Positions 6,337 through 53,563 are shown, counted from the stretch's first letter. The stretch: DNA of 64,000 bases from an uncultured delta proteobacterium (GCA_963728565.1 CAVSLC010000023.1:128001-192000); one strand, 5' to 3'. Made by a program: numbers and translations. Notes: a model not told the origin generated them from the letters alone.

Positions 6337-7483
6337 TTGGCCGAGCTGTCACAGCGCATCAAGAATGAAGCGCAAAGGCTCGGCTTTGAACTCGTTGGCA
6401 TCTCGCCAGTGCGGCTGCCGCCGCACGAGGAGTCGTTCGCTGATTGGCTGCGGAAAAAACTTCACGGTCATCTCGATTATATGGAGCGAACCGAGCTTTT
6501 GCGGCGCGATCCAAGGCTGCTTGTCCCCTGGGCAGTGTCAATCATTTCAGTGGGAATGAACTACTACACGCCGTTTAAACGGCCAACCCCGTCAGAACGC
6601 GGGCGCGGCTGGATCTCGCGCTATGCTTGGGGTGATGATTATCATGAGATTATCCGGGATAAATTGAAAACCCTGCTCGTATTTCTTCGTGAGATTGGCG
6701 GCGAGACGGTGGAAGGCAGAAGCTTCGTCGATTCCGCCCCGATTCTGGAGCGGGACTTTGCGGGTACTGCCGGCATAGGATGGATCGGGAAAAATACCCA
6801 GCTGATTTCGCCGAAAAAAGGGTCCTGGTTTTTCCTTGGTGAGTTGTTTACCAGTCTGCCCCTTGCTTATGATCAGGCCATTCGCGACCGCTGCGGTCAA
6901 TGTGACCTGTGCCTAAAAGCCTGCCCTACCGGCGCCTTCATCGGACCCTATCTGTTGGATGCGCGTCGCTGCATCTCCTACCTTACGATCGAGCTCAAGG
7001 GTTTTATTCCACGTCATCTGAGACCCCTTATCGGTAATCACATTTTCGGCTGCGACATCTGCCAGGAAGTCTGTCCTTATAATGTTAAAGCGAATTCCAC
7101 CGATGAACCGACTTACTTGCCGCGCCAAGGTCTTTATGCTCCCGATTTGGTTGCGCTGCTGTCGATCGACCAAGAGGAATTTCGCCGGCGGTTTCGCGGC
7201 AGTCCCATTGTCCGGGCAAAACGACGTGGATTCTTGCGCAATGTAGCCGTGGCGCTTGGCAATAATCGGCGGGCCTGAAGCCGTGCCGGCGCTGACCAAG
7301 GCACTGAATGACGAAGAGCCACTAGTTCGCGGTCATGTCGCATGGGCGCTGGGCCGGATCGGCACATCTGAGGCGCTCGCGACATTGCGGCAGAAATTGG
7401 CTTCAGAAGGTAACTCGGAGGTTAAAAGCGAGATTGAGGAGGCTCTTCGCGAGGCCAGTGAACCTGTCCCTGATCACTTGTAG
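6337..7483 (+). CDS. queG: Epoxyqueuosine reductase QueG with C-terminal HEAT-like repeat; frameshift near 7264
   Basis: ISRYAWGDDYH, GIGWIGKN, CGQCDLCLKACP, GCDICQEVCP, RNVAVALGN; HEAT tail (DEEPLVRGHVAWALG) is in ORF 7256-7483. Confidence 0.92.
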
Positions 7484-16334: not shown

Positions 16335-17437
16335 GTGCGGCTGCGACGCCAACAGCAACTTGATCGCCTCTATATGCGGATGGCCTGCCGCCTTGCTGCG
16401 AAAGCCGCCGGAAGGACCAGCCCCAACCCTATGGTCGGCGCGGTGCTGCTGCGCGATGGGAAAATGATCGCATCCGGTTTTCACCAATTTGCCGGCGGCG
16501 ACCATGCCGAGATCGTTGCGCTTAAAAAGGCCGGCAATAAGGCTAAGGGAGCCACACTCTATATCAATCTTGAACCATGCAATCATTACGGTAGAACACC
16601 GCCATGCACCCGCGCTTTGATCGCTGCAGGTGTCAAGGAAATAGTTGTCGGCATGAAAGACCCTAATCCGTTGGTATCCGGCAAAGGACTGCGGGCGCTC
16701 ATCCGGGTGGGCATCAAAGTTCGCACCGGTGTTCTCGAAGAAGAATGTCGAGCACTGAACGAGGCATTTACCAAGTTCATCACTCGCGGAGTGCCGTTTG
16801 TTGCGCTCAAGCTGGCGGCGTCACTCGACGGAAAGATTGCGACGGCAAGCGGAGATGCCCGTTGGATTAGCTGCGAAGAATCTCGCGCCACCGTGCATCG
16901 CTTGCGCAATAGCTATGATGCGGTGCTGGTGGGAGCGGGCACGGTGATTACCGACAATCCGCAATTGACTTGCCGTATGCCGGGAGGACGAGATCCGTGG
17001 AGGATCATCCTTGATGCGCGTTTACGAATTCCTCTTGACGCCAAGTTTTTGCGCCAGCGCAGCAGCGATAAAAACATCATTGTGACAAGCGATACCGCTC
17101 CCGCGGGTAAGATTCGCGCGCTGGAAAATTTAGGCGCAACGGTTTGGCGGATGCCTGCGCGCGAAGGCGCGGTGCGGTGGCTTCCGCTGCTGAGAAAACT
17201 GGCCAAAACCGGCATTGCCAGCGTGCTTATTGAAGGTGGGGCAACCACCGCTGCCGGCGCTTTGAAGGAGAAGATGGTAGACAAAATGCTGCTTTTCTAC
17301 GCCCCAAAACTTCTGGGTGGCGACGGGCATTATATGATCGACAGCTTGGGAGTCGAACATATCAAGCAATCTGTCATGCTTCAAAATCTGACAATTCAGA
17401 AATCAGGCGCCGACTTGCTGGTTTCAGGATATCTTGA
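16335..17437 (+). CDS. ribD: RibD deaminase/reductase (reads in frame into riboflavin synthase in this sequence)
   Basis: TSPNPMVGAV, HAE, LEPCNHYGRTPPC, KLAASLDG, IEGG; RibD-like end at ...SGYL ~17435. Confidence 0.93.
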
Positions 17438-17486
17438 GACGAGCGGCGCTGATCCGATTGCGCTAAGCTATAGGTTCGCCTGCATC

Positions 17487-18092
17487 ATGTTTACCGGTCT
17501 AATCGAAGATGTCGGACGCGTCGCGAGCTTAGTGCTGAGTAAGCAGTCAGCGGTTTTGACTGTGGAATCAAGTTTGGCGCTTCGGGGGATCCCATTGGGC
17601 GCCAGTATCGCCGTCAACGGCGCATGCTTAACGGTCGTTCAAAAAGACAAAAGGACAGTGGCATTTGACGTTTCGCCGGAGACATTGGAGCGTACCAGTT
17701 TAGGTACCGTCCAACCTGGCACACTGCTCAATCTCGAACGTTCGATGCGGCTCGAGGATCGGCTGGGCGGGCATTTGGTTACCGGCCACATAGACGGCGT
17801 CGGGATTGTGCATTCGGTCGAAAAAAAAGGAGACTTCACGTTTTTTTCCTTCCGGCTTGGGCAACGTTTGGGATCACTGCTGGTTTCCAAGGGGTCGGTT
17901 GCCGTTGATGGCATCAGCTTGACTGTGAACCAATGCAGCGCCCGGAGGTTCAGCGTCGCGATCATCCCATTTACTTTGCAAAACACTAATTTGCGCGCCC
18001 GTAGGGTTGGTGATAAAGTCAATGTCGAAACTGATCTAATCGGCAAGTACGTTCGTCACTTCGTTAACCAACGAACTAAGAATCAGCTTTAA
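17487..18092 (+). CDS. ribE: Riboflavin synthase (alpha chain)
   Basis: MFTGLIE, SIAVNGACLTV, LGGHLVTGHID, KGSVAVDGISLTVN. Confidence 0.95.
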   Translation: MFTGLIEDVGRVASLVLSKQSAVLTVESSLALRGIPLGASIAVNGACLTVVQKDKRTVAFDVSPETLERTSLGTVQPGTLLNLERSMRLEDRLGGHLVTGHIDGVGIVHSVEKKGDFTFFSFRLGQRLGSLLVSKGSVAVDGISLTVNQCSARRFSVAIIPFTLQNTNLRARRVGDKVNVETDLIGKYVRHFVNQRTKNQL

Positions 18093-34612: not shown

Positions 34613-36829
34613 TTATCGTCTGGCGAATTCCTTAAAGTTTGCGGCGAAGGAAGTGGTTAACGAGAAATCCTGGATCATCGCCCGCGTAAGGCGCCATGGC
34701 CGGATGTGCCATAATTTCATCTGGCGCGCGTTGTGAATCGTATGGCTCCAAATCCGCTGCAGTTCCTGTCTGGAATAGACCACCCGATTGTTAATCGCGT
34801 CGAACTTAATCAGCCGTAAGCTAGCACGCGATGGCAATGAACCCCGTAACTTTGTGTAAGCTTCCTGCCACTCGTTCACGCGGTCGCTGAGACGTACGTT
34901 CGCCTGTAGGCTGTGCATCTCATCAAGGCAACTTCGTGCCGCTTCGGTTTCCACCCAACGGATCTCTTGTATCCTATTTCTCAGGTGTTCCCATTGCTTT
35001 AGAAAGCGGTTCAGATCGCTGCGGTTGTAAAGAATTCTCGACGAGAGCTCTTCCAGAGGATCTAGCAGGGCTCTGGCCCGTCCCGAAAGCGTTTCCCTAG
35101 CGCTACTGTAAACTTTTTGTAACTCAGCAATTCGTAAAGCTTGCCAAATATCGGTTTGAATTTTCTGGATCTGCTCGACCCAGCGCTCCTCGGTGTCGCT
35201 TTTTTTTCTGGTTTGCAGCCAAACTTCTTCAATCTCCTTCAGAAACTTTGCCCAGTTGACAAGTAGGTGCGTGATTTCTTTACTGCGTTTCCAGGCATGA
35301 ACCGGTACCGAGTCGATAGCATAGCCTGGCCGGCGGGTTTTACGATCCTTGAGCCGGAAAAAACCGGCGACCATCGGGTGCTGTTTCTCAATTAAAGCCG
35401 CGTTCTTGTACCACAAGAAAATCGACATAAGGTTCCAGTAATTTCTCGGATTATCGGTCCACCTGGAAAGGACCCTGATCATATTTTCTTTGCTGTAAAA
35501 TGTTCTCCATGCGTTTTCATAACAATCGGTCCACTCTTGTTCGCTCATCAGCGGGTGCTTGATGGTGGCATGAAACGAGTCGCGCTTATTGAAATCCGGG
35601 TCCATCCAATCGCCCCGTTTTTTCATCTCTCGATGATCGTGCGACCCCGGCAGGGGAGTTAGCATAAAAAATGAAGCCTGATCGGGGCCAACCTCGTCGA
35701 TGAGAAAGCGGATGTCGTTCGGAACCTGCTCTTTTGAATCCCAGGGTAGGCCGATGATATAGCCGGTATGAACCACTACTCCGACTTGATGCCATTCTTG
35801 GATGATCTCGCGATACTCTTCAACTTTGTTTTGCTTTTTGCCTTCAGACTCCAAGTTCTGCGGATTGACGCTTTCCATGCCGATAAAGACTTGCGTGCAG
35901 CCCGCTTTCGCCGCCAGCGAAACGAAGTCTTTCGGCTTCCTTGCGAGGTCAACCTGCATCATGAAGGTCACATCGAGACCTTCTTCTCGAAGTTTGATAA
36001 TCTCTTCAAAGGTTTCGCGCCAGAGCTTTTTGCGAGCAAAGTTGTCGTCGGTGAAAAAATAAAACGACACGCCATGATCGCGATAGTTCCGGCGCATCAT
36101 CGCCGCGATGCTTTGCGGGCTTCGTTCACGCATCTTACGCCCTTGAACATTGATGATCGTGCAGAAGCTGCAGGCAAATGGGCACCCGCGTGATGTGTCT
36201 GCCGTGCCAAAGCTCGGGTAGGCAAAATGCTCCATGGTTTTGGAGCTGGTTTTCGGCAATGGCGAATCTTCGATGTCGACCAAACTTTGTAAGTCTTGCG
36301 CGAAGCTATAAAGAGGTTTGAGTTTCCCTTCGAGAAAGTCCGCTAGAATCATGTCCCACTTGCCTTCGACTTCGCCGGATACCGCGCAGATGCCTTCCCG
36401 AAAAAGTTCTTGCATGTCGGGTTCCTGCTCACCCAACATGTTGACCGTTCCGCTCGTGTGAAAGCCGCCGATGATCACCGTGATCCCCTCGGCGCGCAGG
36501 GTCCTTGCCATATCAACAGCGCGGGGAAATTGATTGGTTTGCACGCCAACCATACAGACCAGCAGCTGCGTATTCGGTTCGCTGTTCCAGCGAATGATTT
36601 TGTGCAGAGGAACTTTTTCTGCGGTTTCGTCAAATGTGGTAATCTCTATCGGAAGATCTCCAAACACACGGCGTTGTATAACATCTTCAGTCAAGCCATG
36701 GAGAACGTTCAAGGTGTTACTCGGTAGGACGCCTTTCCAAAAGCGAATGACGTAACCGTCATCGTCATACTTGGAGGGCTTGATCAAAACTATCCGCAGT
36801 TTTTCAATTAACTTTTGCTGATACGTCAC
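34613..36829 (-). CDS. Radical SAM protein with N-terminal B12-binding-like domain and long helical C-terminal extension
   Basis: GTG start 36829 with SD GGAGG; IKPSKYDDDGY, IIGGFH, SRGCPFACSFC (CxxxCxxC), FTDDNF, FIGMES, YIIGLP. Confidence 0.88.
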   Translation of the reverse strand: MTYQQKLIEKLRIVLIKPSKYDDDGYVIRFWKGVLPSNTLNVLHGLTEDVIQRRVFGDLPIEITTFDETAEKVPLHKIIRWNSEPNTQLLVCMVGVQTNQFPRAVDMARTLRAEGITVIIGGFHTSGTVNMLGEQEPDMQELFREGICAVSGEVEGKWDMILADFLEGKLKPLYSFAQDLQSLVDIEDSPLPKTSSKTMEHFAYPSFGTADTSRGCPFACSFCTIINVQGRKMRERSPQSIAAMMRRNYRDHGVSFYFFTDDNFARKKLWRETFEEIIKLREEGLDVTFMMQVDLARKPKDFVSLAAKAGCTQVFIGMESVNPQNLESEGKKQNKVEEYREIIQEWHQVGVVVHTGYIIGLPWDSKEQVPNDIRFLIDEVGPDQASFFMLTPLPGSHDHREMKKRGDWMDPDFNKRDSFHATIKHPLMSEQEWTDCYENAWRTFYSKENMIRVLSRWTDNPRNYWNLMSIFLWYKNAALIEKQHPMVAGFFRLKDRKTRRPGYAIDSVPVHAWKRSKEITHLLVNWAKFLKEIEEVWLQTRKKSDTEERWVEQIQKIQTDIWQALRIAELQKVYSSARETLSGRARALLDPLEELSSRILYNRSDLNRFLKQWEHLRNRIQEIRWVETEAARSCLDEMHSLQANVRLSDRVNEWQEAYTKLRGSLPSRASLRLIKFDAINNRVVYSRQELQRIWSHTIHNARQMKLWHIRPWRLTRAMIQDFSLTTSFAANFKEFARR

Positions 36830-36981
36830 GCCGCCCTCCGTCAGCTTGTAAGTGTAGCCGACATCTTTTATAGATAAATTAATAAATTCAAGCCTTTGGC
36901 GAACTGTAACAACCGCCCTATACCAAGTCAAGCTTTTTGCACAGTTGGCAGACTTGTAACTGTTTGCCGGCGTTACCCTCG

Positions 36982-37666
36982 ATGATCCAACTGCTTCACG
37001 TCAGCAAAACTTATCCGCCCAGTTCCCCGGCTCTGATCGACATTACGCTGAGTATCGAGGATGGGCATTTCGTTTTCCTGACCGGCCCTAGCGGCGCGGG
37101 AAAAACCACATTACTTAAGCTGCTGTTCCGGGAGGAGGAACCGAGTGAAGGACAGATTCTAATTGATCATCAGAATGTCACGCGCTTGCGCAGCCGCGGA
37201 GTCGCCCGCCTACGGAGGCGCATTGGGCTGGTCTTTCAAGAATTCAGATTGCTGCCGCGGCTCACTGTAATGGAAAATGTCGCGCTAGCGGCTCAAGTGG
37301 TGGGCGTTTCGCGACGAGAAGCTCAGATCAAAGCTGTTCGCATACTGAGGGAACTCGGGCTGGAAAAACCACAAGCCAAACCGCTGATGCTCTCGGCCGG
37401 GGAGCAGCAACGCGTCGCCATTGCACGAGCTTTGATCAATGAACCCAGATTGATCTTGGCTGACGAGCCGACTGGAAATCTCGATCCGGGCCTTGCCGAA
37501 GAAATTATGCGAATATTTCTTAAATTGCGCGAAGCTGGAACGACTCTCATCGTCGCCAGTCACAATCTGGATCTGATCAAGCGGTATGGCAGTCGAATTC
37601 TGTCACTGCGTCAAGGTCGCCTCGTTGATGATCTCGAAAGAGTGACGGAGGCGCACGCGTCTGTGA
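36982..37666 (+). CDS. ftsE: Cell division ATP-binding protein FtsE (in frame with ftsX in this sequence)
   Basis: FLTGPSGAGKTT, RRRIGLVFQ, LSAGEQQRVAIARA, ADEPTGNLD. Confidence 0.9.
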
Positions 37667-38571
37667 GCTGGTCGCATGTCGCGTTTGTCGCTCGTCGTGT
37701 GCGCCAAAGCTTATGGGAGTTGCTGTGGAGTCACGTCCTTACTTCGGGAACTATGGCGACCTCGCTATTCGTTTTCGGTGTTTTCATCCTCCTTCAGGAG
37801 AATCTTCAGCACATGCTAAACGGCTGGGGAGATCAGATTCAGATAAACACCTATCTCGCTAACGATGTCGGCACTGATCAAGTGGAAGCGATGATGGATC
37901 GCATTCGTGCAATGCCGGAAGTTGAGGGTTTGCGGCATATTTCCAAGGAGCAAGCCTGGAACGATTTCCAAACCGCTTTAGGCGCTCAGTCCGCTGTTTT
38001 AGAAGGCTTGCCCAGCGATGTTTTGCCGGCGTCGTTTGAAATCACCGTTAAGCCTGTCTTTCGGGACCCGGCGCGAGTTCAGGATCTCGCGGGTCGCCTC
38101 GGTAAGATCAACGGAATCGCGGCTGTGGAGTATCCGCAACAATGGGTTGACCGGCTCAACCTGTTCGTGTTAGCGGTCCGGTGGGCCAAGTGGGCGCTAG
38201 GCGGTATTCTTTTCATCGCGACCTTTTTCATTGTCGGCAGTACCGTTCGGTTGGCTTTGTTGGCGCGTAAAGACGAGATCGAAATCATGCAGTTCGTCGG
38301 TGCTTCGGAAGAACTGATTCGCGCGCCCTTTGTGGTTGAAGGCATGCTTCAAGGCACAATCGGCGCGGGCGTTTCTTTATTCTGTTTATGGCTATGTTAT
38401 GTGTTGTTGCAGCAATACCTGGTCGGCCATTTGGCTCTGTTCGGGCCCAAGATGCAATTGCGTTTTCTTGATCCCGCCAGCATCACGATGATCGTCGCGA
38501 TCGGCTTGCTGCTCGGCGGCCTTGGCAGTCTCTTTTCTCTTAGGAGGTTCCTTAGAAAGTGGCGCGGCTAG
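37663..38571 (+). CDS. ftsX: Cell division permease FtsX
   Basis: ISKEQAW..F, LPASFEI, TVRLALLARKDEIEIMQFVGA...IRAPF..EG. Confidence 0.9.
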   Translation: MSWSHVAFVARRVRQSLWELLWSHVLTSGTMATSLFVFGVFILLQENLQHMLNGWGDQIQINTYLANDVGTDQVEAMMDRIRAMPEVEGLRHISKEQAWNDFQTALGAQSAVLEGLPSDVLPASFEITVKPVFRDPARVQDLAGRLGKINGIAAVEYPQQWVDRLNLFVLAVRWAKWALGGILFIATFFIVGSTVRLALLARKDEIEIMQFVGASEELIRAPFVVEGMLQGTIGAGVSLFCLWLCYVLLQQYLVGHLALFGPKMQLRFLDPASITMIVAIGLLLGGLGSLFSLRRFLRKWRG

Positions 38572-43665: not shown

Positions 43666-44406
43666 CTAAAACGACAACCGCCTTACTTTCTCCTCACAGT
43701 AGCGGATCAAGTCATTCTCGGACGCATAGCTGTCACGATTGATCGGCTCGCCAAAGCGCACATGTGCGTGCCAAGTTTTCCCCGAGCTGTACTGTAGACC
43801 TGTCGGGATAATCGGCAGTGATGCGCCCAGGCGGCGCTCAGCGGCACGGGCGATTGCGACGAATCCTCGCTTGAACGGTAAGAAGCCGTGGTTGTCGATC
43901 TTTGGCGTATAAGCCGGATCTATGTTCGGGTAGCCTTCAGGAAAAACTACGAGCAAGCGATTTTCTACGAGCAACTGCACCGAGTTCTTGAACGCCCTGC
44001 GCCGGTATCGCTCCACATCCGCGAGTGAGAATCCATTGTGAGAATGTCCGCCCCCGTCATTTTTGTGTAATAAGGCATCGGCTCGCAGGACCACAGGCCA
44101 TCGCGCCAGGCGCGTTAGCTGTGTCATCAGCGATTGCATGGCCGCATTTCGAACCCAGTCCAGCGTAACAAGAATATGAAATTGGCGCGGCATGGCAGCA
44201 AACAGCGCCAGACCATCGTACAGATGATGATAATGCCGGACGACAATAAGCGCAGGTCCATTCGCAGGGATGTGCCCGACGCCTGAAGAGATCGTCTGCA
44301 AGCGGCCGAACGCGACAGCACGGGCGATCAGTCGCATCGACTTTGCTGTTGCGGATTGAGCTACGGATCGCTGTGACACCATGCTTTGTTGTCTTGGAGT
44401 AGGCAC
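43666..44406 (-). CDS. PlsC-family acyltransferase (candidate carotenoid-glycoside acyltransferase)
   Basis: HYHHLYD (HxxxxD), VFPEG, FKRG motifs; inside the crt cluster. Confidence 0.78.
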   Translation of the reverse strand: MPTPRQQSMVSQRSVAQSATAKSMRLIARAVAFGRLQTISSGVGHIPANGPALIVVRHYHHLYDGLALFAAMPRQFHILVTLDWVRNAAMQSLMTQLTRLARWPVVLRADALLHKNDGGGHSHNGFSLADVERYRRRAFKNSVQLLVENRLLVVFPEGYPNIDPAYTPKIDNHGFLPFKRGFVAIARAAERRLGASLPIIPTGLQYSSGKTWHAHVRFGEPINRDSYASENDLIRYCEEKVRRLSF

Positions 44407-44409
44407 TGT

Positions 44410-45564
44410 TTAGCAAGTTTCTTTTGGCTCAAACATCCCAGCGCTTCTGCGAACATAGGAACGGCCGCGCCAGCTGTGTTTCCGTGATCGAGCGCTCTGG
44501 ATGAGCCGAACAGCCGCGGCGAAATCACAGAGCGGCGACAACCAGTAAGTCCAGGGCCGCTGATCATAGGCTCTGGCGGTGCCGAACAAAACTCCCACGC
44601 GTAGGGCTAAAAGAAGCGCATTGAGGGCGAAAATCAATCTCGGAGCGCCTATATTCCAAGCGAAAATCAGCATCGGCACGGGCACACCTTGGACAAAAAA
44701 CACTTCGAGCAGGCCCAGTGCCTGCCGCCAAGCGAAGTACTGATCGCGCATTGGCAGCGACCTTGGCCAGTTGCTCCAGGTTTCACGCCAATTGAGATAC
44801 ATGGATACTTCCGCCAGACCGTCGGTTTCATAAAAGCCGACCGCTTCGCCCCGTTCGACCAATCGACGCGCGATCGTGATATCCTCGCAGAGAGATGAGC
44901 GAGCGGCGGCAAAAGCTTGTGCGCCGAGTAGAGTCTCCCTAGGGCTAAAGAAACACTGTCCATTGGCTTGTACTTGATGAACCTTTTGATAAGCGCGGCC
45001 GGGTTGCCCGAAACGGTAAACCAAAGTCGTTAATAGAGGAGGGTGGATCAATGCTTCCAATGTCCCCGATAGATGCTGACGGGTGGCTACCGAAAATGTC
45101 GATACTCCAGAGCGCGCCGCATGGCTTATCAAGGAGCGAGCTAGTTTCGGGGAGACTCGCACATCGGCATCGATACAAAGAATCCACTGGTTCGCCGGAT
45201 TGGAGCGAGCGAGACCGAAGTTGAGATTCCAGGCCTTGCCTATCCAGCCCGCCTCGGCGGGGCTGGCATCAATCCATTGCACGCGACCATCGTGCAGGTG
45301 ATAAAATTCAGTGATGGCTCGGGTCGCATCAGTGGATCCGCCATCAATTACCAAAATCTCGGCCACTTCATCGGGTTGAGCGATGAGGGATTCCAGGCAA
45401 TTTGCGATGCGCGTTGCTTCGTTGAGGACTGGTAGGAGTATAGTGATGCGCGCCGATGAGGGCTGATGGGATGTTTCAACAAGCCTGCATTGCGAAGTTT
45501 TCGACATGCGAAAAAATACTCGCGCTGCAAGTATCGTCTGCAATAAGCCCAGCAACAAAAACAA
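44410..45564 (-). CDS. GT2 glycosyltransferase (candidate carotenoid glycosyltransferase, CruC/CruG-like)
   Basis: PVLNE, IDGGSTD, GWIGK, IDAD, ANGQC, CED, MY..W; SD AGGAG. Confidence 0.82.
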   Translation of the reverse strand: MFLLLGLLQTILAARVFFRMSKTSQCRLVETSHQPSSARITILLPVLNEATRIANCLESLIAQPDEVAEILVIDGGSTDATRAITEFYHLHDGRVQWIDASPAEAGWIGKAWNLNFGLARSNPANQWILCIDADVRVSPKLARSLISHAARSGVSTFSVATRQHLSGTLEALIHPPLLTTLVYRFGQPGRAYQKVHQVQANGQCFFSPRETLLGAQAFAAARSSLCEDITIARRLVERGEAVGFYETDGLAEVSMYLNWRETWSNWPRSLPMRDQYFAWRQALGLLEVFFVQGVPVPMLIFAWNIGAPRLIFALNALLLALRVGVLFGTARAYDQRPWTYWLSPLCDFAAAVRLIQSARSRKHSWRGRSYVRRSAGMFEPKETC

Positions 45565-45576
45565 TTTGAGCTCCTA

Positions 45577-46404
45577 CTAATCTTTCTGCGTCGACTTGCG
45601 CGGCGAGCCCCGCAAGGTTTCGCAAATACTGTCCTGTGGGATAGCGATGATCGTGAACCGGCTTGCGCCGGGATCGGGGACGATTTCCGGAGAGCGATTC
45701 AAGAACCCCGGCCAAGCGCCAAGGACCCGGTGTTCGAAGCTGCGCACCTCGATGCTGCCCTCGACTCTTCCTGGTCCAGTGATACGGCCGTTGAGAATCG
45801 AGTGACCTCGCTGGACTACATACAATTCTCCGTCTGGCAGTAGCGGCACGGAAATTTTCAGGGTCGCGGCCGGATGCCCGTCACCATCCCAATCATAAAC
45901 TGAAGGGTCATTTAACTTCGTCGGCAAATTCGGTTCGCTCGAACTCGGCTTGTAGCCGATTCGTTCAACTCCTAGATCCGCTCGATAGCGCCATCCTTGA
46001 CCGTCTTTCTCAACTTGGATGGGATAGGAGTGTTTGGCCAATGCGGCAACGAACTTGTCGGGGAATATCATCTTGATCATCGCCGAGTCTTGGAGCACAT
46101 GAAAGTCGCATACTTCGTGGCGCTGCAGTAACCCGGTTTGATCGCTTTTAACCTCGATTAATGAAACCGACCTGGAAGCGGATTTGGACACGCCAAAAAT
46201 CGGCACGCGTGCCACCGATGCCAAAATCATTTCGAGACGATACACGCCGGGCGGCAGGGGATTGTCGTCTTGTGCCGCGGAAACGCCGCTCAAAAACATC
46301 AAGCTGCTTAGTAATACCAAGCATCGGCCAATGCACCGTCGGGCGGTTTCCATCCTGCCTTTTGGCTCCGTGTTCGTAACGCTGTCCTGCCCCAGGGGAA
46401 TCAT
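45577..46404 (-). CDS. Hypothetical exported beta-rich protein
   Basis: Signal-peptide-like LVLLSSLMFLSGVSAA; DWDGDG motif; overlaps or abuts same-strand neighbours. Confidence 0.65.
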   Translation of the reverse strand: MIPLGQDSVTNTEPKGRMETARRCIGRCLVLLSSLMFLSGVSAAQDDNPLPPGVYRLEMILASVARVPIFGVSKSASRSVSLIEVKSDQTGLLQRHEVCDFHVLQDSAMIKMIFPDKFVAALAKHSYPIQVEKDGQGWRYRADLGVERIGYKPSSSEPNLPTKLNDPSVYDWDGDGHPAATLKISVPLLPDGELYVVQRGHSILNGRITGPGRVEGSIEVRSFEHRVLGAWPGFLNRSPEIVPDPGASRFTIIAIPQDSICETLRGSPRKSTQKD

Positions 46405-46566
46405 TTCGACTTGTACCCGATCGAAATTCGATGCGCTAAGCTGTCGATTCGTTCAGGTGGACGTTCTTCATAGACAGATGAGTCAGATTGAAGCTCCCGA
46501 CCGAACGACAGCCCAATTGCACGCACATGGCTTCTTGAGGAGCATTGCCCGCTTAAAATTAGAAAA

Positions 46567-47043
46567 TTACAAACCGTTGCCGAGTCTTTTTTCATCCCGC
46601 GGATTAAAGATGGTTTTTAAAGCCGTATGACGGTACTTAAAGATTCGATCCAGATCCGGTGCGACGAAAAATCTATTCACCAGAGCACCGCCGAAAACCG
46701 AGTAACGGACGTGATCGTTAACTAAAGTGCCGCCCTGCTGCTCAAAGAAGGTATGTTCATGCTCCCAAAACTGATAGGGGCCTTTAGTCTGCCGGTCGAC
46801 AAATCGGTGCGGCGGATTCCAAACGCTAATCTCACTTTGCCATTTAATCGGTACGCCGTGAATGCGCAAGCGGTAGTTCAGCCGTGCTCCTGCTCGCATT
46901 ATTGGCGGGGCTTCGCTGATGATCTCGAACCGGAGCCAGCCGGGCGTGAGCCGTTCAAGATTTCTCGGGTCGGCGAAGAACTGAAAAATCTCAGAGCGCG
47001 ATTGAGGCAGCCATAGCTCGGTTCTTAGGTGATGGATTTTCAT
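46567..47043 (-). CDS. SRPBCC/START-fold protein
   Basis: IFQFFADPRNLERLTP, W.SEI..WNPPHRFVD.Q.KGPY.FWEHEHTF, IFKYRH. Confidence 0.88.
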   Translation of the reverse strand: MKIHHLRTELWLPQSRSEIFQFFADPRNLERLTPGWLRFEIISEAPPIMRAGARLNYRLRIHGVPIKWQSEISVWNPPHRFVDRQTKGPYQFWEHEHTFFEQQGGTLVNDHVRYSVFGGALVNRFFVAPDLDRIFKYRHTALKTIFNPRDEKRLGNGL

Positions 47044-47210
47044 GCCCTTCGCCAGGCAGGTCGATCAAAGTTGCCGGAGCATCAGCCTTTGAATCTCACT
47101 TACCAAATCATGCCGCGACCTTTCCTTTTCCTCCCGGTTTAGGTCTAATTATCTCCGAATGTTTCTTAATGCTGAATTTCTATGTTGACTATTCAATACA
47201 TTCATCGATC

Positions 47211-47234
47211 TAAAGTCAACTATACTTGACTTTA
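47211..47234. promoter_or_regulatory. Palindromic candidate operator in the divergent crt-cluster promoter
   Basis: TAAAGTCAA-CTATAC-TTGACTTTA (perfect 9-bp arms); additional GTTGACT at 47184-47190. Confidence 0.65.
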
Positions 47235-47261
47235 CAAGAGGAAATGATGAGAGTAGTTCAG

Positions 47262-48168
47262 ATGAAAATTGTGATAACTGGCGCCAGCGGCTTCATCGGA
47301 TCTCTTCTCGCCGATCATCTCTGGAGGCAGCGTCATCATCTCATTTTAATAAGCCGTAAACCTCCTCGAGAATCCAATGTCACTCAACAGGAGTGGGTTT
47401 TTTGGGTGCCCGGCGAATCCGGTGAATGGGAAGAGGCCATTGATGGTGCGGATGGCATAGTTAATCTCGCAGGCGAGCCAATCGCGGCCAAGAGATGGAG
47501 CGATGTGCAGAAGGAGAAAATTAGGGTTAGCCGGGTTGAGACCACTAGGGCTTTGGTCAACGCCATTGCTAGGACCAAACAGAAACCAAGATTTTTCATC
47601 AGCTCCTCTGCGGTAGGTTATTACGGCGGTCGCGGTGATGAAATCGTTACCGAAGAAACTGCCCCGGGGAGTGATTACTTGGCGCGAGTCTGTGTTGATT
47701 GGGAAAGAGAGGCGAGAAAGGCCGAATCGTATGGTATACGCGTCGCCCTAGTAAGAACAGGGATCGTGCTCGATAAAGGACAGGGCGCGCTAGCAAAAAT
47801 GGTCGTGCCGTTTAAGTTGTTTGTCGGCGGTCCTTTGGGGTCGGGGAATCAGTGGATGCCTTGGATTCATATTGAAGACCAAATCCGCTTACTGTTGTTT
47901 CTAATCGAAAACCAAAATGCTCGGGGTCCTTTCAATGCCACGGCTCCGAATCCGGTAACCATGACCGAATTTTGCAAAACGATGGGCGCGGTTCTTAACC
48001 GGCCCTTCGTGGGCGACTGTCCCGGGCGGTGTATTGACTCTGCTGCTCGGCGAGATGGCCGAGATGCTGCTAAACGGTCAACGTGCTGTGCCGCAGGCCG
48101 CCACGAACCTCGGTTATGAATTTAAGTATAACAATCTGCTGCCGGCTCTGGAGTCCTTGCATCTTTGA
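47262..48168 (+). CDS. TIGR01777-family NAD-dependent epimerase-like protein; frameshift near 48007
   Basis: VITGASGFIG, VNLAGE, SAVGYYG, LGSGNQW.PWIH, GPFNATAP.PV; C-terminus (LLLGEMA..LLNGQR..P..LGYEF) in the shifted frame. Confidence 0.9.
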
Positions 48169-48175
48169 AACGCTG

Positions 48176-49076
48176 ATGAGCGCAGTAAACGAATATCAGA
48201 CTGGTCAACGACAGCAGCTTTATGTTCGAGCCCTGTTGAACGGTGACGATGAGGCTGCGTTTCAGATCATCAATCAGTTGCTGCTGGCGCGGCGGCCGCC
48301 CGTCGATGTTTACTTAAATCTGATCACCCCCGCATTGATCGAGATAGGTCAGCTTTGGTGTGACGGAGAGATCGGTGTGGGCCTGGAAAAACTTGCCTCT
48401 CATCTTGTGCTGAAGCATATGGACCGACTGCGAGGACATGCACAGCAGCGAGAGGCCACGGTTGCCGCAACGTATCCTGGTTGCATGTGTGGAAGGGGAA
48501 CTGCATTGCATCGGCGCCCGGATGGTGGCTGACTTGTTGGATATTGAAGGATGGTCGGTGGACTTTCTCGGAGCCGACGTTCCCACGCCGTCATTGATCG
48601 AGACAATCAAAATTCGACGACCGCACTTAGTGGCACTCTCTGTCAGGACGTCGAGCGGTCTCGCTCACGCACGCCGTGTGGTAGGAGAATTCAGGACGAT
48701 GGCGGATGCGCCAAAGATTCTTTTGGGTGGGCAGGCAATGATACGAAATGAGTGGCCGTCAGACGCAACATGCGCAGTTGCTCGTAACGCCCTCGAAGGA
48801 GTGCAGCTTGCCGGCAAGCTGCTGAAAGCCGGGCGGCCTAAAGCTGTATTGAAGGAATACCTGATCGGATTGGGTCGCGGAGTGCGCGACTTGCGCAACA
48901 AAAAGGGTTGGACCCAAGAGCAATTAGCCGAATCGGCGCGCCTTACGCGTGTTTCCATCGTCGCCATCGAAGGCGGAAAACAGAACATTTCAATGGATGT
49001 GGTACTGCGTCTGGCGAATTCATTGGGGACTTCGCCGGAAGATCTACTATCGAGCCACAACATCTTCCGGTCTTAA
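48176..49076 (+). CDS. Cobalamin-binding regulator: B12 cap + Rossmann B12-binding domain + C-terminal XRE HTH; frameshift near 48437
   Basis: ITPALIEIGQLWCDGEIGVGLEK, ILVACVEGELHCIG, GWSVDFLGADVP, VALS, LLGG, then LGRGVRDLRNKKGWTQEQLA...IEGGKQNISMDVVLRLANSLG. Confidence 0.82.
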
Positions 49077-49086
49077 GGGAGGATTC

Positions 49087-50205
49087 TTGAAAAACTTAAG
49101 CCTCAATTTGTCGAACGAGGTGTCGGCTGAGCGGATTTTCTCGGACCAGGCGAAAAATCAGGAGCAGCGGAATATAGGTCGAGAAGGACTGCGCAGCATG
49201 TTGCCCAAGACTGAACGCATGGCGGAACTGCTCGGTTTGGATGACCCCTCGATTGTCCAGGATATTCTTCGTGGCGCTTTAATTGACCCACTCGCCGAAG
49301 CGACTTCGACCCGTGGTAAACGCATACGCGGACAGTTGGTGACGTTGGGCTACCGTCTCGTTAGCGACACTCCAGCCTGCGTTCTTGCCACCAAACAGTG
49401 CGGCTGGTGCGCCGCTATAGTCGAATTGATTCATACAGGATCCCTGGTTATCGACGATATCGAGGATGGCAGCAGTGTGCGCCGGGGCCGTCCGGCACTG
49501 CATCTTCAATTTGGTGTCCCGATCGCGGTGAACGCAGGCAACTGGCTCTACTTTTGGCCATTCGAATTGCTTCGTGAAACCGAACTGCCGGTCGATAAAA
49601 TTTTTTACCTCTATGAGCATTGTCATCGAACTCTGCTGCGCGCCCACTTTGGGCAGGCGGTTGATTTGGGCGCCCCGGTTAGATCCCTGCCCCAGCACCG
49701 GGTTGCACCAGTTTGCCTGGCATCGATGAAACTCAAGACCGGCGCATTGATGGGCTTTGCCACCATTCTGGGCGGCGCCATTGCACGAGCATCGGAAGGT
49801 GCCTTGTCGATTCTGGATCAGTTCGGGCAGGACCTCGGCGTCTCGCTGCAGATGTTCGACGATTTGGGTAATCTCATCGGTAAATGCGAACCGGCCAAGC
49901 GGTATGAAGATCTTAGATTGTCTCGACCCTCATGGGTCTGGGCATGCGCCGCAGACAGCAGCACTCGAGAGCATACGCAGAGTTCTGTACCGCAGTCGGT
50001 AGTTTACCGGATGCGCATAAACTGGAGTCATGGTCTGAGGCGCATAACCTTACAGAACGGGTCCGTCTCTATGCCCGAGGTTATTTGGACAGCCGCGTTT
50101 CGACAGTTAAAAGAGCGCCTTGACAGCGCCAACGTACATTGGTCGAAACGTGCTTTTGAAGATCTACGAGAACTCGGCGAGGAGATCGCAGTTGCCTATG
50201 GATAG
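49087..50205 (+). CDS. crtE: Polyprenyl (probably geranylgeranyl) diphosphate synthase; apparent compensating frameshifts ~49970-50090
   Basis: GKRIR, IHTGSLVIDDIED..RRG.P, GQAVD, KTG, QMFDD; directly upstream of crtI/crtB. Confidence 0.8.
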   Translation: MKNLSLNLSNEVSAERIFSDQAKNQEQRNIGREGLRSMLPKTERMAELLGLDDPSIVQDILRGALIDPLAEATSTRGKRIRGQLVTLGYRLVSDTPACVLATKQCGWCAAIVELIHTGSLVIDDIEDGSSVRRGRPALHLQFGVPIAVNAGNWLYFWPFELLRETELPVDKIFYLYEHCHRTLLRAHFGQAVDLGAPVRSLPQHRVAPVCLASMKLKTGALMGFATILGGAIARASEGALSILDQFGQDLGVSLQMFDDLGNLIGKCEPAKRYEDLRLSRPSWVWACAADSSTREHTQSSVPQSVVYRMRINWSHGLRRITLQNGSVSMPEVIWTAAFRQLKERLDSANVHWSKRAFEDLRELGEEIAVAYG

Positions 50206-51733
50206 AGTCTCTGCCGCTGTCATCGGCAGCGGTTTCGGCGGGCTCGCCCTAGCCATCCGTTTGCAAGCAGCCGGTTGTCGCACGGTAATCTTTGAAAAAC
50301 GCGATCAGCCAGGAGGCCGGGCGTATGTTTATCGCGACCAGGGGTTTACGTTCGATGCCGGACCAACGGTGATTACAGCTCCCGATTGTTTAACAGAGCT
50401 TTTTACCTTGGCAGCAAGATCAATGGCTGATTATGTCACGCTGCTGCCGGTTAAACCTTTTTATCGTCTATTCTGGCAGGACGGTTTTAGCTTCGATTAT
50501 TCGGCCGATCTGGCCGATGTCGAGCGACAGATCGCCAGCAAAGCACCGGGGGATCTGCACGGTTACAGGAGCTTTCTGAGATATTCCGAGAGAGTTTTCG
50601 AAGAAGGATATGTGAAGCTGGCGCATGTGCCATTTCTGGATTGGTCGAGTATGGCGAAGGTAGCGCCGCAACTGCTCCGGCTCAAAGCTTATCGATCGGT
50701 GCATAGTATTGTCGCCAAGTTTATTCAAGATCCGCATCTTCGACAGCTTTTTAGCTTTCACCCTCTGCTCGTCGGCGGCAATCCGTTTACCACCACGTCG
50801 ATCTATACGTTAATTCATTGTTTGGAACGGAAATGGGGCGTGTTTTTCCCCAGAGGCGGCACCGGCGCACTCGTGCAGGGAATGCTGAAGCTGTTTCAGG
50901 AATTGGGCGGGAGAATTCGATTGGAGTCGGAGGTATCCGAGATTCTAACCCGCGGCAATCGTGTTGTCGGGATCGCGACCAAAACCGGCGAGAAACACGA
51001 GTGTGATTTAGTGGCCAGTAACGCCGATGTGGTTCATACCTACGATCGCCTTCTGCGTCGCGAGCCGAAAATCCAGCGCACGCGCAAAAGATTGGCCGCC
51101 ATGTCTTACAGCATGTCGTTGTTTTTGATCTACTTCGGTACGCGTCGCCAGTATTCAAACCTGCAACACCACAACATCATCTTTGGACCGCGTTACCGGG
51201 AGCTTCTGAAGGACATATTCCGCCGCGGTCGGTTGGCAGATGACTTCTCGCTTTACCTGCATGCGCCGACACGATCCGATCCGTCGCTGGCGCCGCCGGG
51301 TTGCGAAGCCTTCTATGTGCTATCTCCCGTGCCTCATTTGGGCAAGCTGTCGGTGGACTGGAGCGTGGAAGGGCCGCGTTATGCCGAGCGAATCCTAGAG
51401 TATCTTGAGCGGCATTACATTCCAAACCTGCGCAATGAGATTGTCACGCAACGGATTTTTACTCCGCAGGATTTTCACTCAGAGCTGAATGCCCATTTTG
51501 GATCGGCGTTTTCACTGGAACCTCGTTTGATGCAGAGTGCGTATTTTCGGGTTCAGAATCGTGACGCAAATCTCATCGGCTTGTATCTTGTCGGCGCCGG
51601 GACCCATCCCGGGGCAGGAATTCCCGGCGTCGTAAACTCTGCCAAGGCCACCGCCGGGCTTATTCTGGATGACATCAGAAAAGCTGTGTTAGTGCGCAGT
51701 TCCAACCAGGTGCAGAGATTATCCTATGCCTGA
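50198..51733 (+). CDS. crtI: Phytoene desaturase
   Basis: VIGSGFGGLALAIRLQAAG, GGRA..FTFDAGPTVIT, LLVGGNPF, YLVGAGTHPGAGIPGV. Confidence 0.96.
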   Translation: MDRVSAAVIGSGFGGLALAIRLQAAGCRTVIFEKRDQPGGRAYVYRDQGFTFDAGPTVITAPDCLTELFTLAARSMADYVTLLPVKPFYRLFWQDGFSFDYSADLADVERQIASKAPGDLHGYRSFLRYSERVFEEGYVKLAHVPFLDWSSMAKVAPQLLRLKAYRSVHSIVAKFIQDPHLRQLFSFHPLLVGGNPFTTTSIYTLIHCLERKWGVFFPRGGTGALVQGMLKLFQELGGRIRLESEVSEILTRGNRVVGIATKTGEKHECDLVASNADVVHTYDRLLRREPKIQRTRKRLAAMSYSMSLFLIYFGTRRQYSNLQHHNIIFGPRYRELLKDIFRRGRLADDFSLYLHAPTRSDPSLAPPGCEAFYVLSPVPHLGKLSVDWSVEGPRYAERILEYLERHYIPNLRNEIVTQRIFTPQDFHSELNAHFGSAFSLEPRLMQSAYFRVQNRDANLIGLYLVGAGTHPGAGIPGVVNSAKATAGLILDDIRKAVLVRSSNQVQRLSYA

Positions 51734-52679
51734 AGCAATGTCGCCGAGAGTCAAAGCGGCGTTGGACGAATGCCGCTGGATGATCACCAAAGGTTCGAAA
51801 AGTTTTTCGCTCGCAGCTCGGCTTTTTGATTCGGGCACCAGGGATGCGGCGTTTTTTCTTTATGGCTGGTGCCGTTACTGTGATGATCAGGTGGATCGGG
51901 CGGGAATGGAGGAGAGCCGCGAACAACTTGAACAGCGCCTAGCCAAGCTCTCTGAGGCCACTCGGTCGGTCTTTTCTGGCGCCGCTCAGGATCAAGCGGT
52001 ATTTATCGCGATGCAGTACATCGTCCAACGCTATTCGATTCCAGCTCATTATGCGTTGGAACTAATCGAAGGAATGGCGATGGATGCTCGTGGTACCCGG
52101 TACCAGACATTTAATGATCTTGCACTTTATTGTTACCGCGTGGCCGGAACCGTCGGATTAATGATGTCTCACGTGATGGGGCTGCGCGATGAGCAGGCGC
52201 TTAAGCACGCAGCAGACCTTGGAATTGCAATGCAGCTTACCAACATTGCCCGGGATATTACCGAAGACGCATCAATGAGGAGAATATATCTGCCTTTGAA
52301 ATGGTTAGAAGAAGCAGGTGTAGAGCCGGAAGAGATCGCCGCGGTAAAAAATCGCCCAAAACTGGCGCTAATAACGAAGCGGCTCCTTCAGGAAGCGGAA
52401 CGGTATTATCTTTCAGGAGATGCCGGCTTGTGGCACTTGTCGTTTCGTTCCGCTTGCGCCGTTGCGGCGGCGCGGCATGTTTATGCCGAAATCGGTTCAC
52501 TTCTTCTGCATAAAGGGCCGTCGGCTTGGGACCAGCGGAGCTATGTTACGGGCGCGCGTAAACTTTGGGTCATACTCTTCGGGGTGCTTCACGTAATCAC
52601 TTCTATCCCGGCTCGATTGATGCGGCCATGGTCTGCCGCGCCAATTCATCGGGTCTGGCGGCATTCAGAACTCAGGTGA
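51726..52679 (+). CDS. crtB: Phytoene synthase
   Basis: GSKSFSLAARL, LYGWCRYCDD, YCYRVAGTVG, LGIAMQLTNIARD. Confidence 0.96.
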   Translation: MPEAMSPRVKAALDECRWMITKGSKSFSLAARLFDSGTRDAAFFLYGWCRYCDDQVDRAGMEESREQLEQRLAKLSEATRSVFSGAAQDQAVFIAMQYIVQRYSIPAHYALELIEGMAMDARGTRYQTFNDLALYCYRVAGTVGLMMSHVMGLRDEQALKHAADLGIAMQLTNIARDITEDASMRRIYLPLKWLEEAGVEPEEIAAVKNRPKLALITKRLLQEAERYYLSGDAGLWHLSFRSACAVAAARHVYAEIGSLLLHKGPSAWDQRSYVTGARKLWVILFGVLHVITSIPARLMRPWSAAPIHRVWRHSELR

Positions 52680-52717: not shown

Positions 52718-53563
52718 ATGCACTATATCCCATGGCTGTGTTTAATCGTCCAGGGCGCCATCGTCGCTGCTAGTTTGCTGGGCTACGGTATCTTCACTTC
52801 TCGTCCCGAGCTTCTGATGCAACTCGACCCAGGCGCGCGTTTTTTTACTTGGGCTTTTTATGGATTTGCCGTCGGCAATATGCTGTTCGGCGGTTTTGCT
52901 GTCATGGCAGAAGCGTTTTTGCGTGATCGGACGAGCGGTCTATGGGCCTTTGCCTTGATCTATTCGGTCAGTCTTGTCAGCGAACTACTTGGCACTACGT
53001 ACGGAATCCCATTTGGCGCGTATTCCTATACCGCGCTGCTCGGTTTTAAATGGTTCGATCGCGTGCCGCTCTTGATTCCATTGAGCTGGTTCACGATGAG
53101 TTGGGCCTGCTGGGTAATTGCGCGGCAGCGCAGGGACGGGCGTTCGGCCGTAATTCTCGCCACGGCTCTCTTGGTCGCGTGGGATCTTTTGCTCGACCCG
53201 GCGATGAGCAAAGTCACCAGTTACTGGATCTGGGGGCAAAGCGGCACCTACTACGGGATGCCCTGGATGAACTTGCTCGGCTGGGGCGTTACCGGGTTAG
53301 TGCTATTCGTCATACTCTCCAAAATTGCGCCAGCGCCGCATAGCGAGCTGAGATTTGCAATTTCGGTATACATCATCAATTTCGCTTTGCCGCTCGGATT
53401 CTGTGTGTTGAATCAGTATTGGTTGGCGGTTTGGGCGGGTTTGGGCGCTATCGCAATTGCTTTTCTCGTGTTCGGCAGGAACGGAAGCACATTAGCGGCG
53501 CGCGAGCTGCGAGACCTGGGTCCGTCTGGCAGAGCGAGGGCATTGTCTTCACAAGGAGAATGA
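52718..53563 (+). CDS. cruF: CruF-type carotenoid 1,2-hydratase (DUF422 family)
   Basis: SELLGT.YG.PFGAYSY..LG...VP..IPLSW, AWDL.LDPAM, YW.W...YYGMP..N..GW; multi-TM. Confidence 0.85.
   Translation: MHYIPWLCLIVQGAIVAASLLGYGIFTSRPELLMQLDPGARFFTWAFYGFAVGNMLFGGFAVMAEAFLRDRTSGLWAFALIYSVSLVSELLGTTYGIPFGAYSYTALLGFKWFDRVPLLIPLSWFTMSWACWVIARQRRDGRSAVILATALLVAWDLLLDPAMSKVTSYWIWGQSGTYYGMPWMNLLGWGVTGLVLFVILSKIAPAPHSELRFAISVYIINFALPLGFCVLNQYWLAVWAGLGAIAIAFLVFGRNGSTLAARELRDLGPSGRARALSSQGE

Follow-up and report, generated by a model that had tools for sequence, protein, structure and literature searches.

A cobalamin-binding module joined to a C-terminal XRE helix-turn-helix domain: a candidate light-released repressor upstream of carotenoid genes in an uncultured bacterium

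In this study, we analysed a regulator gene located upstream of crtE-crtI-crtB in a 64,000-nt stretch of DNA (the window) from an uncultured delta proteobacterium (GCA_963728565.1, CAVSLC010000023.1:128001-192000). Once a single surplus base is removed, positions 48176-49076 on the plus strand encode a 299-amino-acid (aa) protein in which a CarH-like cobalamin-binding module is followed by a C-terminal helix-turn-helix (HTH) domain of the XRE type. We favour the reading, with a probability of roughly 0.6, that this protein is an adenosylcobalamin-dependent, light-released repressor of its own crt operon. To our knowledge, B12-based light sensing is known experimentally almost only from the MerR-type CarH/LitR proteins, the AerR-type co-regulators and the recently described photocobilins. 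It differs from CarH in the DNA-binding domain, the domain order, the symmetry of the candidate operator and two pocket residues, while the module and the regulatory logic are CarH-like.

The protein is read in two frames. Residues 1-87, which form the four-helix cap, are encoded in frame A from the ATG at 48176 (48176-48436, plus strand), and the remaining 212 residues, 88-299, which comprise the Rossmann domain, a linker and the HTH domain up to the stop codon, in frame B (48438-49076, plus strand). Frame A contains WCDGEIGVGLEK and matches the Pfam family B12-binding_2 (PF02607; E 5.3e-12, 46.2 bits against a cut-off of 23); frame B contains ELHCIG and matches B12-binding (PF02310; E 4.1e-19) and, at residues 236-290, HTH_3/XRE (PF01381; E 9.1e-13, 48.5 bits against a cut-off of 23) over the whole profile from position 1 to 55. 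No match to a MerR domain was found in the regulator with Pfam, and the C-terminal HTH_3/XRE domain is its sole DNA-binding domain. The initial annotation had described a helical cap with W-x9-E-K, a Rossmann domain with an ExHxxG motif (ELHCIG) and a C-terminal Cro/XRE HTH, and had proposed a CarH-like cobalamin module in which this HTH takes the place of the N-terminal MerR HTH; the Pfam matches and the alignment described below agree with this description throughout. The N-terminal winged helix of CarH is thus replaced here by a C-terminal Cro/C1-type domain.

For P0001, an intact 299-aa relative, a structural model was made with AlphaFold2 using an 86-row alignment (predicted local distance difference test score, pLDDT, 87.6; predicted template modelling score 0.69). 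In the model, the cap is built of four helices, the Rossmann domain has five strands and the HTH domain five helices, with a flexible linker near residues 216-223, where the pLDDT falls below 50 at 220-223. When the model was compared with the PDB using Foldseek, B12 photoreceptor modules ranked first; the template modelling scores, normalized by target, were 0.84 for the cobalamin-binding domain (CBD) of CtMerR (8jbs) and 0.77-0.80 for that of TtCarH, and the photocobilin 8j2w was matched with an E value of 3.1e-13. A sequence search of the PDB gave E values of 1.5e-19 for photocobilin, 1.1e-16 for CtMerR, 2e-11 to 6e-11 for TtCarH and 2e-7 or weaker for methionine synthase, and also matched the HTH domains of C.AhdI, ClgR and HigA. 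The CtMerR CBD (8JBS/8JBT) and the photocobilins (8J2W/8J2X) are therefore the best matches in the PDB by both sequence and structure, and with TtCarH (5C8A/5C8D) the regulator shares the same two-part fold of the cobalamin module. The output differs in each case, being a MerR HTH in CtMerR, a biliverdin-binding domain in the photocobilins, joined in one of them to a diguanylate cyclase, and an XRE domain here.

The corrinoid proteins MtbC, MttC, MtaC and MtgC share the superfamily fold of the cap and the Rossmann domain. However, the window protein scores 41-54 bits against cut-offs of 215-420 for these methyltransferase-associated proteins, which, unlike the regulator, have no HTH domain, and no methyltransferase partner gene was found among its neighbours, which are carotenoid and isoprenoid genes. 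NCBIfam holds no model for proteins of the present type; the best match is the CarH equivalog NF052513 at 59.6 bits against a cut-off of 400, and this match covers only the cobalamin part, model positions 88-254.

CarH and CtMerR form head-to-tail dimers, and a similar arrangement is predicted for the regulator. In a homodimer prediction, the interface score ipSAE was 0.55, compared with 0.01 for the best of three controls; of the proteins with solved structures used for comparison, 20 of 30 one-chain pairs attained this value, as did 1 of 23 single chains. The prediction runs shared at least 90 % of their contacts, with a partner pLDDT of at least 81. In the predicted interface, cap residues 67-87, including Lys72, lie against the partner's segment 127-147, which contains the GxxxP loop, and the HTH domains are outside its confident part. 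As this is the head-to-tail geometry of CarH and CtMerR, the favourable score may reflect memory of solved structures, and the prediction is an indication of likeness to CarH-type dimers rather than of binding.

To place the pocket residues, we aligned residues 45-140 directly to TtCarH (5C8A) and to its H132A variant (8C35). The stretch WHRGEIGVAEEHLAS aligns with WCDGEIGVGLEKLAS (WA... in the variant), and at the lower ligand GELHCIG aligns with GERHEIG, giving the equivalences W61=W131, C62=H132, E71=E141, K72=H142 and H110=H177. The cap motif accordingly reads G58-Q-L-W61 (G58-x-x-W61) followed by Cys62, Glu71 and Lys72, and the Rossmann domain contains G107-E-L-H110, E108-L-H110-C-I-G113 and G132-A-D-V-P136. 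In common with CarH, the regulator thus has the W...E motif, a lower-ligand His in GExH and in the wider D/ExHxxG motif, and the GxxxP loop; it differs in having W-x9-E-K rather than an intact Wx9EH, that is, Lys for His142, and Cys for His132. According to the literature, the Wx9EH motif of CarH touches the adenosyl group and is crucial for adenosylcobalamin-specific binding, and in the bis-His light state the upper ligand is the His that directly follows the Trp (PMC9304148). Disassembly of the TtCarH tetramer requires ligation by this His132 (PMC10442372), a position taken by Arg in CtMerR and by Gln or Tyr in the photocobilins (PMC11796333). Like these proteins, the regulator is without His at this site; unlike them, it has EK where they retain EH, as well as Cys after the Trp.

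These equivalences change the view taken in the initial annotation, in which the His of Wx9EH was regarded as the cobalt ligand after photolysis and the Lys as its replacement. The ligand in TtCarH is His132 (PMC9304148, PMC10442372, PMC11796333), the residue to which Cys62 aligns, and Lys72 aligns with the adenosyl-contacting His142. Nor is the Lys a defining oddity of the protein, as had been assumed, since among 111 full-length close relatives from the homologue search described below, the set used for the conservation counts in this paragraph, position 72 alternates between His (62) and Lys (49). A quick maximum-likelihood tree of these relatives requires at least four changes between Lys and His and places the window protein in an all-Lys clade of 44 members. 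Gly58, Trp61, His110, Gly113 of ExHxxG, Gly132 and Pro136 are present in 111/111, Glu71 and Gly107 in 109/111, and Cys62 in 105/111, the remainder having Ser (3), Arg (2) or Tyr (1). The published signature of light-responsive CBDs, obtained with SignatureFinder, consists of GxxW, EH, GxxH and GxxxP (PMC11796333); GxxW, GxxH and GxxxP are found in the regulator, and the EH element is replaced by E71-K72.

A second Cys in the same region, Cys104 (window about 48486-48488; P0001 numbering), lies six residues ahead of the lower-ligand His and is present in all 111 close relatives. It was considered as a second ligand and dropped, as Thr (38), Ala (33), Cys (24) and Ser (22) occupy this position among 136 representatives of the wider family; it probably is a small residue beneath the corrin rather than a ligand.

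The domain combination is not confined to the window. A homologue search with frame B returned 327 proteins at E<=1e-3 among 880 candidates, P0001 being one of them, and in 113 of the best 120 of these 327 PF02607, PF02310 and PF01381 were found in one chain; the other seven, which are 124-229 aa long, are encoded on contigs of 607-4845 nt. A profile was then built from 86 members, hand-picked among the 111 full-length matches after removal of near-identical rows. Against 1.84 billion representatives, it gave 51,534 matches at E<=1e-3, 10,136 at E<=1e-10 and 1,144 at E<=1e-30. In the best 150 of the 51,534 matches, 136 proteins are 270-340 aa long, and for those listed in this size range the best stretches cover roughly positions 10-305 of the 315 in the profile, that is, cap, Rossmann and HTH domains. 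In the ESM Atlas, 7 of 30 matches have the same three-domain Pfam set (about 295-299 aa; the clusters listed have 54-118 members), and the commonest known phyla in these clusters are Chloroflexota, Myxococcota and Bacillota, a taxonomic range that is drawn from few source names and from the Atlas cluster labels. Members in the databases agree with the window protein in the three domains and their order and are about 290-320 aa long. The search for this architecture that the initial annotation had called for thus shows it to be common across several phyla, and the idea put forward there of an independently assembled one-off gives way to that of a large multi-phylum family. A tblastn search of plasmids for distant members yielded 18 records, none of which covered at least 80 % of the query or reached the HTH domain.

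Among the 136 wide representatives, Trp is present in 126, Glu in 129 and the lower His in 133, and position 72 is His in 126 and Lys in 3; EH thus occurs in 126/136 here, compared with 62/111 close relatives. The residue after the Trp is His in 52, Glu in 18, Ala in 15, Ser in 8 and Cys in 7. To judge from these residues, many distant members are fully CarH-like (WH...EH), and the Binatia-type clade is a Cys variant with either His or Lys at position 72. Automatic annotation names members of the family 'cobalamin-dependent protein', 'helix-turn-helix domain-containing protein' or 'MerR family light-induced transcriptional regulator', and one automatic source labels relatives 'methanogenic corrinoid protein MtbC1'. 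In a published sequence similarity network, light-responsive CBDs are reported to be joined to HTH domains located N-terminally as well as C-terminally (PMC11796333). As EH was demanded in that mining, members with EK such as the window protein fail its stated signature. Our literature searches yielded no description or test of a cobalamin-binding protein carrying an XRE HTH domain, although subscription journals were thinly covered and a prior description is possible.

Like CarH, the regulator is encoded within a crt operon, whose genes it presumably controls. A scan of genome contigs identified five related loci (L001-L005), labelled Candidatus Binatia, 'uncultured delta proteobacterium' or Syntrophobacteraceae metagenome-assembled genomes, and the gene order from a short-chain dehydrogenase/reductase (SDR) through the regulator to crtE-crtI-crtB is the same in 5/5. 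Three of these loci are collinear with the window over 38.2-59.1 kb, with DNA identities of 95.9 % (L003), 95.0 % (L001) and 86.5 % (L002). The regulators of L004 and L005 are 64 % (WC...EK) and 50 % (WC...EH) identical to that of the window, and both precede crtE-crtI-crtB. The location just upstream of crtE-crtI-crtB given in the initial annotation is thus confirmed on the open reading frames (ORFs) of the window and on the domains of the intact genes in L003.

The first gene of the operon (47262-48168, plus strand) encodes a TIGR01777/YfcH-type SDR with Epimerase and DUF1731 domains, its frame being interrupted in the window by an extra base near 48003; Epimerase is matched on the window ORF (E 1.7e-23), and the intact L003 copy matches both domains as well as TIGR01777 (352.9 bits, cut-off 207). 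The regulator follows after 7 nt and is itself followed after 11 nt by a crtE-like polyprenyl (geranylgeranyl diphosphate) synthase gene (49087-50205, plus strand; polyprenyl_synt E 2.2e-39), with a putative TTG start at 49087 and an internal stretch that is misread owing to two indels, a deletion at 49963 and an insertion at 50093. Next are a crtI-type phytoene desaturase gene (50198-51733, plus strand; Amino_oxidase E 6.3e-45 on the L003 orthologue), the phytoene synthase gene crtB (51726-52679, plus strand; SQS_PSY E 5.3e-67 on the L003 orthologue) and a gene for a membrane protein resembling the carotenoid hydratase CruF (52718-53563, plus strand; Caroten_synth E 6.6e-45, with the NCBIfam CruF models below their cut-offs), after which a second polyprenyl synthase gene and dxs are found on the same strand. 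On the minus strand, four genes diverge from the operon and share with it one 200-bp intergenic region: an SRPBCC protein (46567-47043; Polyketide_cyc on the L003 orthologue), a 275-aa protein without a Pfam or NCBIfam family (45577-46404), a glycosyltransferase (44410-45564; Glyco_transf_21/GT2 on the L003 orthologue) and an acyltransferase (43666-44406; Acyltransferase on the L003 orthologue). This divergent set (43666-47043) plausibly consists of co-regulated carotenoid tailoring genes and, taken with the CruF-like hydratase, the domain assignments suggest a glycosylated and acylated hydroxy-carotenoid as the product.

The shared intergenic region contains a candidate operator, a 24-bp palindrome composed of TAAAGTCAACTA and TACTTGACTTTA at 47211-47234, and this falls within the interval 47184-47234 that had been named for a binding test in the initial annotation. 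Its arms are 12 nt long, complementary at 11/12 positions and without a spacer, and it lies 28 bp upstream of the conserved ATG of the SDR gene. In a search that allowed up to two mismatches, the palindrome core has a single match in the 64-kb window, with 0 mismatches, and no second copy of the palindrome was found within the window; at least one match was obtained with this search in 15/100 shuffles. In an alignment of the window with L001-L003, 22 consecutive columns at the palindrome are invariant in a region with a mean column identity of 80 %, and the palindrome occurs once in each of these three loci. An additional half-site, GTTGACT (47184-47190, plus strand), is an inverted copy of AGTCAAC at 47214-47220, with 7/7 complementary positions and 23 nt between the arms; it is largely conserved in L001-L003 and can also be read as the -35-like TTGACT, so that it may be bound by the regulator or act as a -35 element. 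The regulator is proposed to bind the palindrome at 47211-47234. A two-fold dimer with two XRE HTH domains fits such an inverted repeat, whereas CarH reads tandem direct repeats (PMC9304148).

According to the model we favour, the N-terminal module formed by the four-helix cap and the Rossmann domain would bind adenosylcobalamin in the dark with His110 as the lower ligand, and the adenosyl group would be held in a pocket formed by Trp61, Glu71 and Lys72. Two protomers would pack head to tail as in the predicted dimer, with the cap helix of each facing its partner's GxxxP loop, and this packing would set the two C-terminal XRE HTH domains in two-fold symmetry. The HTH pair could then bind the palindrome at 47211-47234, and possibly also the half-site at 47184-47190, and thereby block the promoter of SDR-regulator-crtE-crtI-crtB-cruF and perhaps that of the divergent tailoring genes. 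Light would break the cobalt-carbon bond, the loss of the adenosyl group would loosen the dimer, and the HTH domains would lose cooperative DNA binding, so that the carotenoid genes are expressed.

Several observations weigh against this model. The fourth signature element, EH, reads EK in the regulator, and as the residue on which TtCarH disassembly depends, His132, is Cys here, the switch to the light state cannot be identical. The palindrome is degenerate in L004, and a sigma-70 consensus scan of 46900-49300 found no promoter, so that the relation between operator and promoter is taken from position alone. The linkage to crt genes was examined within Binatia-type genomes; the five loci are all of this type and collinear with the window, and as relatives of one lineage they count as one observation of linkage and not as five. 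Lastly, our literature searches found no experiment on any member of the family.

It has also to be considered whether the regulator, as a cobalamin-binding repressor, senses cofactor availability, cobalt redox state or thiol/oxygen status instead of light, with Cys62 and the cobalamin acting in the manner of AerR-type co-regulators. The Cys at the upper-ligand position of TtCarH in 105/111 close relatives and the EK in place of EH speak for such a chemical sensor, as does the report that cobalt redox state and oxygen drive the ligand switch of TtCarH itself (PMC10442372). However, the Trp and Glu of the adenosyl pocket and the GxxxP loop are kept as in light-responsive modules, the operon makes carotenoids, a classic output of light sensing, and the EH-type relative that retains the Cys (L005) has the same gene context. 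We therefore consider it unlikely that the protein senses such a chemical signal in place of light.

A light-released repressor with Cys62 in its pocket could still differ from CarH in its photoproduct, a possibility that was raised in the initial annotation. As Cys62 is the residue found at the position of TtCarH His132, such a difference would hinge on Cys62 and not on Lys72. One speculative form of this idea, which we hold to be doubtful, is that the Cys62 thiolate becomes the upper cobalt ligand after photolysis, or reacts with a Co(I)/Co(II) intermediate, to give a cobalt-sulfur photoproduct. If so, the light state in this Cys-bearing clade would not be bis-His, and formation and decay of the photoproduct would depend on the thiol redox state; the switch would then respond to light and oxidative stress jointly and might be reset by chemical means, and the role of having either Lys or His at position 72 would be to adjust adenosyl binding or the photochemistry.

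A further explanation is that the protein resembles CarA, that is, a B12-independent repressor in which the cobalamin domain serves only for dimerization and derepression is brought about by another factor. The His of Wx9EH is lost in the clade of the window protein, and myxobacterial CarA is indeed a CarH paralogue that has become B12-independent (PMC9304148). CarA, however, lost the Trp and flanking residues (PMC9304148), whereas Trp61 is kept in all of the close relatives, and the conservation of Trp61 (111/111), His110 (111/111) and Glu71 (109/111) argues that cobalamin binding is under selection. In addition, no antirepressor-like gene was recognized nearby, although one neighbour, the 275-aa protein, has no family. 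On balance, a CarA-like repressor appears distinctly improbable.

The coding sequence of the regulator is interrupted in the window, where frames A and B are called as overlapping ORFs within 48176-49076. The surplus base is either A at 48436 or C at 48437 (GGA-C-ATG, plus strand); it is absent from L001, L002 and L003, in which the regulator ORF is intact. Frame A is identical to residues 1-87 of P0001 at 83/87 positions and frame B to residues 88-299 at 211/212, and the two adjoin exactly on P0001 with no residue lost between them. The one-base correction near 48437 by which the initial annotation had arrived at a protein of about 299 aa is thus borne out. Compared with L001-L003, the window has 11 single-base indels of its own across 38.2-59.1 kb, about 1 per 2 kb, of which 10 are insertions and 1 is a deletion (39270, 41439, 44393, 45565, 48003, 48436, 49963, 50093, 53669, 53765 and 54471). 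They strike, among others, the SDR gene (48003), the regulator, crtE (49963 and 50093) and the second polyprenyl synthase gene (53765 and 54471), and some fall in intergenic DNA; long homopolymers are not the setting of most of them. As one frameshift per 2 kb would make for a non-viable genome, we take the indels as assembly errors, and the frameshift in the regulator is of this type, the gene being intact in the organism. That the fusion is unreal, with two genes merged by an assembly error, or that the gene is a decaying pseudogene, is suggested by the frameshift at 48436/48437 in the window copy and is nevertheless very improbable in view of the single chains of about 295-330 aa with all three domains in 113 of the 120 homologues listed, the intact ORF in three related genomes, the exact abutment on P0001 and the occurrence of 11 such indels in 21 kb, which affect several neighbouring genes as well as intergenic DNA. 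These findings, which also argue against a chimera, run contrary to the possibility that the HTH is a separate gene, which had been named in the initial annotation among the findings that would overturn its proposal. Overall, 38172-59073 looks like an unpolished assembly, and ORF calls throughout the window need care.

Elsewhere in the window, domains normally encoded by separate genes are found in one ORF at 4576-5754 (Response_reg and LpxC), and RibD and riboflavin synthase (Lum_binding) at 16335-18092 and the FtsE ABC ATPase and the FtsX permease at 36937-38571 likewise share one ORF each; these may have been made by single-base indels that fused neighbouring genes or may be real fusions.

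Should the favoured reading be correct, it would add to the known B12 light switches for transcription a second one of independent architecture, in which an XRE HTH domain should read a simple palindrome and which is distributed over multiple phyla. It would also explain the control of carotenoid synthesis in the uncultured and globally distributed Binatia; carotenoid genes have been described in a survey of Binatota genomes (PMC8262859), in the accessible text of which a term search found no occurrence of 'regulator', 'CarH' or 'cobalamin'. A compact repressor released by green light and with a symmetric operator would be of use in optogenetics, and the natural Cys in place of His132 and Lys in place of His142 would provide ready tests of the residues that the CarH photocycle needs.

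The remainder of the window is ordinary chromosome, with ruvAB, fab genes, a rib operon, leuS, murJ, tatC, a H+-PPase gene, dnaG and rpoD. An Rfam scan of the window detected no cobalamin riboswitch and only two tRNAs. A QueG-type epoxyqueuosine reductase (DUF1730 and 4Fe-4S domains) is encoded at 6337-7278; QueG is a cobalamin-dependent enzyme, and its presence fits with the organism having access to B12. On the minus strand, 34613-36931 encodes a 772-aa radical SAM protein with long unassigned stretches on either side of the core domain, the only part recognized by Pfam.

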